Below are positions 94-1,514 of a stretch of 54,435 bases of DNA, in pieces (the stretch's first letter is position 1; each line of letters begins with the position of its first letter). Below the pieces are notes generated by a model that was given only the letters and a program-made list of their open reading frames with translations, made no database searches and had not been told where the DNA came from. The stretch is taken from the sequence record PV340549. The stretch is one strand, 5' to 3'. A program made the translations under genes and the position numbers. Source of the DNA: Escherichia phage PhiR12_1.

Positions 94-283
94 ATTGTAG
101 TACCTCTAACGTCCTGATTCTGTCCAACATTTTGAAGTGTTTAGGCGCCACTGGGGCGGTGATTAGCACTGTTTTGTGCTGTTCATAGCACTTCAAGACT
201 ATTCAATTCAGAGCAATCGTTGAAGAATTACCCGTAAGGTAATATCATACTATTTAGATAACTGCGGTTATCACCATCAAGGG

Positions 284-317
284 CCACTGATGACGCTGTT
301 ATCATCAGTGGCTTTTT
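284..317 (+). terminator. Rho-independent terminator-like hairpin
   Basis: Stem ccactgatga (284-293) / tcatcagtgg (302-311), 8-nt loop, followed by cttttt. Confidence 0.55.
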
Positions 318-359
318 GTACCTTCACTGCACAGCCAGTGAAGTGTTGAGGAGACTAGC

Positions 360-701
360 ATGAGAACAGTAGCGAGAAGATCGATACAGACGATTGAGCG
401 TCGGACTCAACTCGTCAGTTCTTTTGTTGACTCAAACACAGCAAACGAGTTCTTCGTGAGAAGACTGAGTGATCGAGTCTCCCCGGCACGTCAGCTGTTT
501 ATTGTGACATTGAACAATGAGGTTCGTGACGGTGACGTGATCCCGTTTGCTGAGATCGCCATGAACAAAGAAAAATTGCGCTATGTTGTGAAGCCAGCAG
601 ATCAGTATCCTCAGTATGTAAGCAGTAATCTGCTGAAGAAAATTGAAGCGGCAATTGCTCTATACATGCAGAAGAACTACAGGGAAATTAACTACCATTA
701 A
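360..701 (+). CDS. hypothetical protein (att-proximal cargo gene 1, 113 aa)
   Basis: ORF with RBS gaggag 6 nt upstream of ATG; preceded by hairpin 322-343; no family recognised. Confidence 0.55.
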   Translation: MRTVARRSIQTIERRTQLVSSFVDSNTANEFFVRRLSDRVSPARQLFIVTLNNEVRDGDVIPFAEIAMNKEKLRYVVKPADQYPQYVSSNLLKKIEAAIALYMQKNYREINYH

Positions 702-712
702 AAGGTTGCTGA

Positions 713-1479
713 ATGGCTCCTGCGTTAATACCTTCATATAACAAGGACTTGAACATCACGCCATTTGGCGAAAAACGTCTTATTGAGTCATTCTATTTTT
801 TCACTGCCGAGGCTGGCTTACTGAGGGCTGATGAGTACATTGTCAGTTCTGGTGAGTTTCAGTACTACTTGGATGTGTATCAACTGGGATGTTCCACCGA
901 CGACTTTTTTTAGACTATGGCAGTGACCTTCTTGATTCGAAGGTTCCAATGCAGGATCTGGTCAATACCCTCTTAGGTCTTGATATGGTAGACGATAACA
1001 AAACGATAAGAATAGGTCGTATACAGTTCAACGACTTTAATTTTATCGAAGAGAACGGTCAGATGATGACCGGAAAGCAAGTGAAAAGCGCTGTTATCGC
1101 ACAGGATTTCCAATCAGCAGGTTTGGCGCGTGAGATCTATAAAATGCTTGCGCGAAAGCATGAGTTTCTCATCTGCGATAACATTCAAAGTATTGCCGGT
1201 GGTGCTCTTTGGGCCAGTAGCATCATTCGAATTGCCGAGGTACGGATCTACAATTCACGCACGAAGAAATTTATGGACATACTTGGTCCAGGTGCGCGTG
1301 GTGTTTCAGGTACTTTGCCATGGAGTGCGAATGATCTGTCTGTAGATGAGATTGTTCGCTGGGGTCGTGCGTATGATGATGAAAACTGTTGTCGTCACAT
1401 TGTACATGTTATCTGTAAGGACCGACTCATTGACGAGCAATTTCATGATTATGTTTCGATAGGTGGCGCGACAGAATAA
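713..1479 (+). pseudogene. hypothetical protein gene split by frame change at a T7 tract (713-913 in frame 2, 889-1479 in frame 1)
   Basis: Two overlapping ORFs; a one-base gain in the T run 905-911 (or -1 slippage) would fuse ...STDDFF to LDYGSDLL... giving about 255 aa. No family recognised. Confidence 0.5.
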
Positions 1480-1485
1480 CCATCA

Positions 1486-1514
1486 AAAAGACCCGGCATT
1501 TGCCGGGTTTTTTC
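1486..1514. terminator. bidirectional Rho-independent terminator between convergent genes
   Basis: A-run, stem cccggc (1492-1497) / gccggg (1502-1507), T-run 1508-1513; sits between the stop of the 889-1479 ORF and the int stop. Confidence 0.7.

Follow-up and report, generated by a model that had tools for sequence, protein, structure and literature searches.

A mobile two-gene cassette between attP and int of an ssrA-integrated lambdoid prophage encodes a predicted GNAT-fold acyltransferase and a small basic partner

Toxin-antitoxin (TA) systems of type II that belong to the GNAT family are defined by antitoxins with a DUF1778 (ribbon-helix-helix, RHH) or DUF4065 domain and by a monophyletic toxin clade (PMC9177977). 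Here, we analyze a two-gene cassette of Escherichia phage PhiR12_1 (PV340549) within a stretch of 54,435 nucleotides, referred to below as the window. The first gene, open reading frame 1 (ORF1), encodes a small basic protein, and the second, ORF2, encodes a larger acidic protein that is predicted to adopt a GNAT fold. The cassette resembles TacAT, AtaRT, ItaRT, KacAT, and GmvAT in that its two genes form an operon led by the smaller one, its effector has a modeled GNAT fold, it sits on mobile elements, and palindromes are present at its promoter. It differs from these systems in that its effector is acidic, is about 80 aa longer than the toxins (~160–180 aa), and falls outside their clade, whereas its partner is neither an RHH/DUF1778 nor a DUF4065 protein.

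Within the wider GNAT superfamily, the ORF2 model has the same predicted order of strands and helices as Rv0802c, NatD/Naa40, HAT1, and AAC(2')-Ia. It also shares a Q/R-x-x-G-x-A pyrophosphate motif between β4 and α3, an invariant Asp at the end of β5, and invariant Tyr residues. Unlike these enzymes, ORF2 has no sequence-profile match in Pfam, NCBIfam, or the PDB, carries extra N-terminal strands and a family-specific C-terminal region of about 60 aa with a PW(S/D) motif, and is always partnered by a separate protein that resembles half of a GNAT domain. Tandem-GNAT enzymes (MshD, Eis, and the clavulanate protein ORF14) carry one degenerate domain, and HAT1 carries an N-terminal domain; here, in contrast, the two units are separate polypeptides with no detectable mutual homology.

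As a genetic unit, the cassette is similar to phage morons in the HK97/HK022 sense, to lom and bor of lambda, and to the P2/P4 defense hotspots, since it is either present or absent at a fixed slot. As in a moron, one cassette is found in many unrelated phage slots; it ends in a terminator, and a promoter-like element is predicted. However, its predicted promoter is separated from the genes by a leader terminator, and it also occurs outside phages, in a pdif-bounded module of a small plasmid. The arrangement of a promoter, a short structured RNA region, an intrinsic terminator, and protein gene(s) is reminiscent of the type III TA system ToxIN, from which the cassette differs in lacking tandem RNA repeats, in having an effector that is not a ToxN/AbiQ endoribonuclease, and in having two protein genes. 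A ToxI-like repeat array in the leader was considered and rejected because positions 1–1600 of the window contain no tandem repeats. The leader has no Rfam match at E ≤ 10, and the effector is predicted to have a GNAT fold. Judging from the models, what is new here is a GNAT acyltransferase module that combines a new obligatory partner with an unusual promoter-terminator-gene leader. A literature search yielded no relevant description of GNAT-based prophage defense or of the PhiR12 phages.

The interval at 143–1542 is a real, self-contained two-gene cargo cassette (moron) between attP and int. Its approximate bounds follow from relatives with an empty slot, DX6 and ETEC1749 (loci L075 and L076), which align to the window by blastn only on either side of the cargo, at 1–142 or 1–136 and at 1543–2863, with about 25 bp between the two blocks. 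In these relatives, only about 12 bp separate the att arm from the end of int at its stop codon, which bears out an expectation in the original prediction that int adjoins attP in lambda-like phages. The cargo brought its own terminator and displaced the last seven codons of int, whose 3' end was replaced along with it. Where relatives share a homologous int and a homologous att arm, we found three slot states: empty, occupied by one DUF4760 gene in the opposite orientation (many O26, O103, and O55:H7 strains and PSS-15), or occupied by the two-gene cassette. The cassette is present in 10 of 5,426 complete Escherichia coli genomes, 108 of which have the same int. In strain M8, the cassette is 99.3% identical to that of the window and the adjacent int is 87.6% identical; this gap suggests that the cassette was exchanged recently. 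Because it is enclosed by the att boundaries and four PhiR12 phage records contain it, the cassette is not a remnant of a neighboring element.

The original prediction had described two plus-strand genes opposite in orientation to int, lying between the att site and int, and had interpreted them as accessory cargo. The genes were found as described, and a comparison of relatives that it had suggested revealed the variable interval. It had also named two findings that would argue otherwise. Conservation of the genes as core genes in all relatives is inconsistent with carriage by 10 of the 108 int-sharing genomes, and an origin as debris of an adjacent element is inconsistent with the location inside the att boundaries and with the PhiR12 records.

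Two further features of the slot were observed. The alternative DUF4760 cargo (L003 2585–3493, L074 1522–2445, and L077 1525–2448) occurs in many prophages of the enterohemorrhagic E. coli type; this gene had no match in PADLOC, and nothing relevant was found in the literature on DUF4760. A 13-nt direct repeat, TGAAGTGTT(T/G)AGG, is located at 133–145, at the left edge of the insert, and at 339–351, just before the Shine-Dalgarno (SD) sequence of ORF1. It may reflect chance or recombination microhomology.

The two genes are inherited together across a wide range of elements. An ORF1 homolog lies directly upstream of the ORF2 homolog in 66 of 66 loci, usually 11–36 nt away, and this pairing holds down to 28–33% identity. 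The pair occupies at least six different slots in unrelated temperate phages and is also found on phage-plasmids and plasmids. In Enterobacter and E. coli prophages, it lies between the Q antiterminator and holin genes on the opposite strand. Yersinia-type prophages carry it either close to the tape-measure gene or flanked by the genes that encode the major tail protein and tail chaperone, and in Pantoea it is part of a myovirus baseplate module. Other locations are between a tail fiber gene and a different integrase gene and, in SSU5-like phage-plasmids, between Rz and parA (SSU5_031/032). ORF2 homologs were detected in 375 plasmid records, and the pair is found in a pdif-bounded 3.3-kb module (L078 2930–6292) on pOXA653_010062, an 8.8-kb MOBQ plasmid of Acinetobacter wuhouensis. 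Genes of the ORF1 family also exist as orphans without ORF2 in the P1-like phages D6 (gp021) and RCS47 (gp049), where they lie between hot/humD/phd-doc and morphogenesis genes (L007 3974–4324 and L008 3974–4324); the related cluster P0151 has 385 member sequences. Collectively, these data identify the cassette as a horizontally mobile unit whose two genes are co-inherited. The pOXA653_010062 module, which has XerC/D pdif sites at its bounds, also contains a helix-turn-helix gene and an Arc-family gene and adjoins a blaOXA-653 pdif module. Separately, Photorhabdus akhurstii was found to carry two tandem ORF1-ORF2 pairs (L027 3967–5039 and 5633–6711).

Both ORFs are real coding genes, as both are under purifying selection. 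ORF1 has a median dN/dS of 0.13, and ORF2, which starts 11 nt past ORF1, has 120 synonymous and 25 amino-acid-changing codon differences at 90% amino acid identity. Each falls into a PHROGs family labeled function unknown, and neither the two proteins nor their distant homologs had a Pfam or NCBIfam match (E ≤ 10 for curated GNAT models). The earlier statement that neither protein belongs to a recognized family therefore stands with respect to curated sequence families, but it does not extend to the structural models, in which ORF2 adopts a GNAT fold and ORF1 resembles half of one.

On the basis of its predicted structure, ORF2 is a previously unrecognized acetyltransferase (GNAT)-fold protein. 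The AlphaFold2 model (pLDDT 77.7, pTM 0.76) has the predicted order β1-α1-α2-β2–4-α3-β5-α4-β6, which is that of the GNAT fold. At the β4-α3 junction, the residues Q134-S-A-G137-L-A139 correspond to motif A, the putative acyl-CoA pyrophosphate motif. Within the 29-sequence ORF2 family, G137 and L138 do not vary, and Q/R134 is conserved. In the wider family, Q123, Y143, D156, Q159, W167, Y180, and W204 are invariant down to 22% identity. The family is small, with 56 representatives among 1.84 billion proteins, and acidic, with a pI of 4.9 and a net charge of about −13. The weakest matches to the family profile (E values of 3e-5 to 6e-4) were proteins that carry Pfam Acetyltransf_1 at the matched stretch. 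A search of the BFVD viral structure library returned weak matches to NAT_SF-type phage proteins only, and AtaT and TacT rank among the generic GNAT matches of ORF2 and no higher.

The AlphaFold2 model of ORF1 (pLDDT 75.4) consists of a four-strand meander followed by a long C-terminal helix. This model indicates a partial, degenerate GNAT-like half fold, a β-sheet domain. ORF1 has no cofactor motif. Its N-terminus (MRTxARRSIQTI) is conserved, flexible, and basic, with R7, Q10, and T11 invariant, and the median pI of the family is ~9.3. No fusions or extra domains were found in 162 ORF1-family clusters, all of which are stand-alone proteins of 104–139 aa. Compared with the Yersinia pair, ORF1 is 70% identical and ORF2 is 57% identical. 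We also considered ORF1 as a duplicate of part of ORF2, which was ruled out by an hhalign probability of 0.1%.

Upstream of ORF1, a consensus scan identified a predicted sigma-70-like promoter, TTGAAG-17-TATCAT, as the sole promoter-like site in positions 1–3000. Divergent cassettes elsewhere, whose leaders can no longer be aligned, have a −35/−10 pair at matching offsets from the ATG (−135 to −141 and −112 to −118). Palindromes in the spacer and just after the −10 element vary symmetrically between lineages (TTACC-N5-GGTAA, TTGCTCA-N4-5-TGAGCAA, TATCAC-N5-GTGATA, and GATAAC-N4-GTTATC). The last of these, a candidate operator or 5' RNA hairpin in the window, is conserved with symmetric changes in six other loci (L009, L013, L019, L021, L054, and L055).

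Downstream of the predicted promoter, the leader is highly structured, and segment 250–375 folds with −41.7 kcal/mol (z −3.1). We folded separately each of 29 distinct leaders from the clade with ORF1 identity of ≥64%, and 23 contained a hairpin (−9 to −18.5 kcal/mol) with a T-run starting 43–51 nt before the ATG. The stem sequences differ, and the hairpin and T-run are present regardless of whether the cassette occupies the att-int junction, a tail operon, or a baseplate operon. RNAalifold applied to the leader alignment recovered the base of the terminator stem only, as the loops do not align. A second, short hairpin just upstream of the first ribosome-binding site had been noted in the original prediction and was confirmed by folding; equivalent hairpins of other sequence precede the SD in seven other loci (L017, L019, L021, L041, L042, L054, and L055). 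The same prediction had the cassette bracketed by terminators. This holds at the 3' side, where a bidirectional terminator is shared with int (locus L013 also has a clear 3' terminator), but the hairpin at 283–317 is a leader terminator and not an outer bracket, because the positionally conserved promoter-like element is upstream of it and it accompanies the cassette into other slots. As this terminator separates the promoter from ORF1, transcripts from the cassette promoter must read through it to reach ORF1. We infer from the sequence that the leader is either an attenuator or the source of a ~60-nt leader RNA and a read-through mRNA. Two other candidates were set aside. A leader peptide (19-codon ORF, 290–349) has no SD and is not conserved in Yersinia-type leaders, and antiterminator pairing of GATAAC with GTTATC at 299–304 is not conserved beyond the E. 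coli/Atlantibacter clade.

In the window, the second gene is split into two frames (713–913 and 889–1479). The split results from a T7 tract that is T8 in intact alleles, and the change from T8 to T7 cuts ORF2 short after residue 66. All 10 complete E. coli carrier genomes, including NCTC9112 and M8, have T8 and encode an intact 255-aa ORF2. The original prediction had treated 713–1479 as one fused gene. Because the T8 alleles encode intact ORF2, the fused product is the right protein to analyze, but the copy in the window is frameshifted. In a comparison of 2.16 kb with the intact NCTC9112 allele (window 838–3000), the T8/T7 base is the only difference. The T7 allele arose at least twice independently, once in the lineage of the window and L046 and once in L047, whose nearest neighbor is a T8 allele. 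Independently of these alleles, the ORF2 homolog of Xenorhabdus indica (L032 6001–6716) has a frameshift near residue 80 with ORF1 intact. Thus, three independent disruptions of ORF2 with an intact ORF1 were found, and the reverse was never seen. Speculatively, the exact wild-type frame (F-F-L-D-Y) would be restored by a −1 slip of P-site tRNA-Phe at UUU_UUU_UAG or by slippage during transcription of the U-run. On a conservative reading, the T7 allele is a loss of function at a mutational hotspot, and the cassette in the window would be at best weakly active, with its catalytic gene switched off by the T8-to-T7 slip.

We propose, with somewhat better than even confidence, that the cassette is an autonomous mobile two-gene acyl-CoA transferase moron that probably functions in conflict or addiction by the following mechanism. 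The unit would comprise, in order, its own sigma-70-type promoter, operator-like palindromes, a leader of ~105 nt with a terminator and a pre-SD hairpin, ORF1, ORF2, and a terminator. The opposite charges and strict pairing of ORF1 and ORF2 suggest that the two proteins form a complex. ORF2 would move an acyl group from acyl-CoA onto a cationic amine, which would belong either to a protein (a lysine or a basic tail) or to an aminated small molecule or aminoacyl group. ORF1 would be a non-catalytic regulator, adaptor, or pseudo-substrate inhibitor, as its conserved flexible basic N-terminus suggests. The leader terminator would hold expression low, and the resulting trait would benefit the mobile element.

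The most probable role, although we place it just short of an even chance, is that the cassette excludes rival phages or elements or acts in post-segregational addiction. Detoxification or modification of the host is given a distinctly lower chance. A defense or toxin function, which the original prediction had described as frequent among att-proximal morons, is plausible. We lean toward conflict or addiction because the cassette is a TA-like bicistron with a small upstream gene and a palindromic promoter, because it resides beside parA in phage-plasmids and on a small plasmid, because orphan ORF1 genes lie near phd-doc in D6 and RCS47, and because the three independent disruptions of ORF2 left ORF1 intact. 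A reversed assignment, with ORF1 as the toxin and ORF2 as a modifying antitoxin, was excluded, as lysogens and phages alike remain viable without ORF2, and ORF1 is commonly found as an orphan.

Several results weigh against this proposal. The GNAT assignment rests on predicted structures; sequence-profile searches of the PDB with narrow and broad alignments yielded chance-level matches only and reached no PDB GNAT. The motif A Gly is kept in about 70% of the wider ORF2 family and replaced in about 30% of distant members. Taken alone, promoter consensus scans perform at chance level; support for the promoter comes from its conserved position. ORF2 exceeds the GNAT toxins that acetylate tRNA in size and is acidic. 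ORF1 appears at least as conserved as ORF2, which is subunit-like and unlike typical fast-evolving antitoxins, and it has no recognizable DNA-binding fold, which leaves autoregulation without explanation. Neither protein matched a defense or TA model in Pfam or NCBIfam, and PADLOC (PADLOC-DB v2) returned no match for ORF1, ORF2, or their SSU5 or Acinetobacter homologs. Finally, given the gene lengths, three disruptions of ORF2 versus zero of ORF1 is not a significant difference.

Some of these features would be expected of a lysogenic-conversion holoenzyme, the main rival to our proposal. This enzyme would acetylate a cationic small molecule (aminoglycoside-like, a peptide-nucleotide antibiotic, or a polyamine) or a host protein, with ORF1 as a structural subunit, and would provide a fitness gain to the lysogen or plasmid host. 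The strong acidity of ORF2 is expected of polycation-binding enzymes, the conservation of ORF1 to the same degree as ORF2 is subunit-like, and on the Acinetobacter plasmid the pair lies beside a blaOXA module. However, known resistance GNATs need no dedicated partner gene, and NCBIfam, which names resistance acetyltransferases, contains no match. Tight control of dosage, as the palindromic promoter and the leader terminator suggest, would be unusual for a resistance gene, the orphan ORF1 of P1-like phages would be given no role, and the recurrent loss of ORF2 also argues against such an enzyme, which we consider unlikely. The position of the pair in other prophages would fit a role in the phage lytic cycle or in counter-defense, in which the pair would act while the phage infects and not in the lysogen, for instance by acetylating a virion component or a defense protein of the host. 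The genes are co-oriented within tail or baseplate operons in Yersinia, Pantoea, and other prophages, and in locus L009 they are near Acb2/Tad1-like anti-defense genes. Yet here and in the Q-slot phages they run opposite to the neighboring phage operons, with a predicted promoter of their own, and they are also present on the 8.8-kb non-phage plasmid. PhiR12 phages with the frameshifted gene were, moreover, deposited as complete and propagated on E. coli C and K-12, and we regard a lytic or counter-defense role as improbable.

We judge it decidedly improbable that the pair is a classical GNAT type II TA system like TacAT, AtaRT, or KacAT, in which ORF2 would acetylate aminoacyl-tRNA and ORF1 would serve as antitoxin and repressor. 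Despite the bicistron with the small gene first, the carriage on mobile elements, and the promoter palindromes, ORF1 has neither DUF1778 nor DUF4065 (no Pfam match at E ≤ 1), and its model is a β-meander with a helix and not an RHH. ORF2 matches no Acetyltransf Pfam model and is acidic and 255 aa long, and toxins rank no higher than generic GNATs among its matches. The cassette is not a member of the TacAT/AtaRT family. The frameshift of ORF2 in the window would also be consistent with a decaying pseudogene remnant that has no current function in any host. However, all 10 RefSeq E. coli carriers and dozens of further loci have an uninterrupted ORF2, both genes are under strong purifying selection, and the window differs by a single base from intact NCTC9112 over the stretch compared. 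Decay of this kind is very improbable, and for the family it is already refuted.

A more specific form of the conflict or addiction proposal, which we hold tentatively and consider rather doubtful as a whole, would join these features into a new system in which a GNAT effector is checked by ORF1. The basic tail MRTxARRSIQTI would act as a pseudo-substrate that holds the acidic ORF2 in check, and the promoter-proximal terminator or small-RNA leader would set dosage. The E. coli T8 tract would be a slip-strand on/off switch, and the orphan ORF1 genes of P1-like phage-plasmids would be anti-addiction or anti-defense genes.

The window is an ssrA-integrated lambdoid prophage of E. coli, and its features are listed in Table 1. 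Its sequence matches that of Escherichia phage PhiR12_5 at 100% identity, and positions 1–2900 are one base apart from E. coli NCTC9112 and otherwise identical. The complement of the host-side sequence CAGCTCCACCA precedes the att core in L001 and L002. A second ACGTGCA-TTTT-ACGTGCA pair lies across the att core, with repeats at 54276 and 54287 (54276–54293, within 54272–54298), and similar repeats (AAGTGCATTTT(G/A)(A/C)GTGCA) are found in the relatives L003, L075, and L076. The pairs that flank the core probably serve as Int arm-type binding sites. The PhiR12_5 record (L004 1–1564) reaches 1.56 kb past the att core at window position 1, and the IS-transposase and integrase fragments in this additional stretch suggest either a tandem element or a different boundary for excision or packaging. 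Elsewhere in the window, isrK, C4 antisense RNA, STnc100, and sar RNA gave Rfam matches at gathering score, at 15477–15554, 15580–15664, 18728–18933, and 40150–40216. These RNAs are typical of lambdoid and P22-like immunity and anti-Q regions.

Table 1. Features of the cassette and its surroundings, in window coordinates
Feature	Position	Strand	Details
att core copy GCGGGAGTTGAACCCG, distal from ssrA	1–16		Identical 16-mer at 54398–54413
Probable Int arm-type site ACGTGCA-TTTT-ACGTGCA	74–94		Repeats at 75/86; putative function
Cargo insert relative to empty-slot relatives	143–1542	+	blastn; ~1.4 kb; takes in last 7 int codons and shared terminator
Predicted sigma-70-like promoter TTGAAG-17-TATCAT	220–248	+	Palindrome TTACC-N5-GGTAA (228–242) in spacer
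Palindrome GATAAC-N4-GTTATC	257–272	+	Just after −10; candidate operator or 5' RNA hairpin
Leader intrinsic terminator	279–318	+	GC-rich stem 283–312; T5 at 313–317
8-bp hairpin just 5' of SD	322–343	+	Folding; SD GAGGAG at 348–353
ORF1	360–701	+	113 aa; pI 9.8; phrog_2594; SD GAGGAG at 348–353
ORF2, predicted GNAT-fold acyltransferase gene	713–1479	+	phrog_3307; frameshifted here; intact form 255 aa, pI 4.7
T7 homopolymer (T8 in intact alleles)	905–911	+	−1-base frameshift site; stop TAG 911–913
Bidirectional intrinsic terminator for ORF2 (+) and int (−)	1486–1514		−18.6 kcal/mol; z −4.6
int	1521–2699	−	Arm-DNA-binding and Phage_integrase domains (tyrosine recombinase)
Excisionase-like ORF	2654–2863	−	Excisionase annotation in M8 and PSS-15
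ssrA (tmRNA) 3' end	54387–54435	−	Rfam RF00023, 53.4 bits; contains second att core 54398–54413

For phrog_2594 and phrog_3307, our analysis provides a predicted fold and, in acyl-CoA-dependent N-acylation, a probable chemistry. The two families extend across temperate phages of Enterobacterales, hundreds of SSU5-like phage-plasmids of Klebsiella, E. coli, and Enterobacter, and plasmids of Acinetobacter, one of which carries a carbapenemase. The natural T8 allele of NCTC9112 and the T7 allele of the window provide a ready-made isogenic pair that is one base apart. If a role in defense, exclusion, or addiction is true, a GNAT-based system with a new type of partner would join the known repertoire, and the attP-int junction of ssrA phages would be a cargo hotspot.

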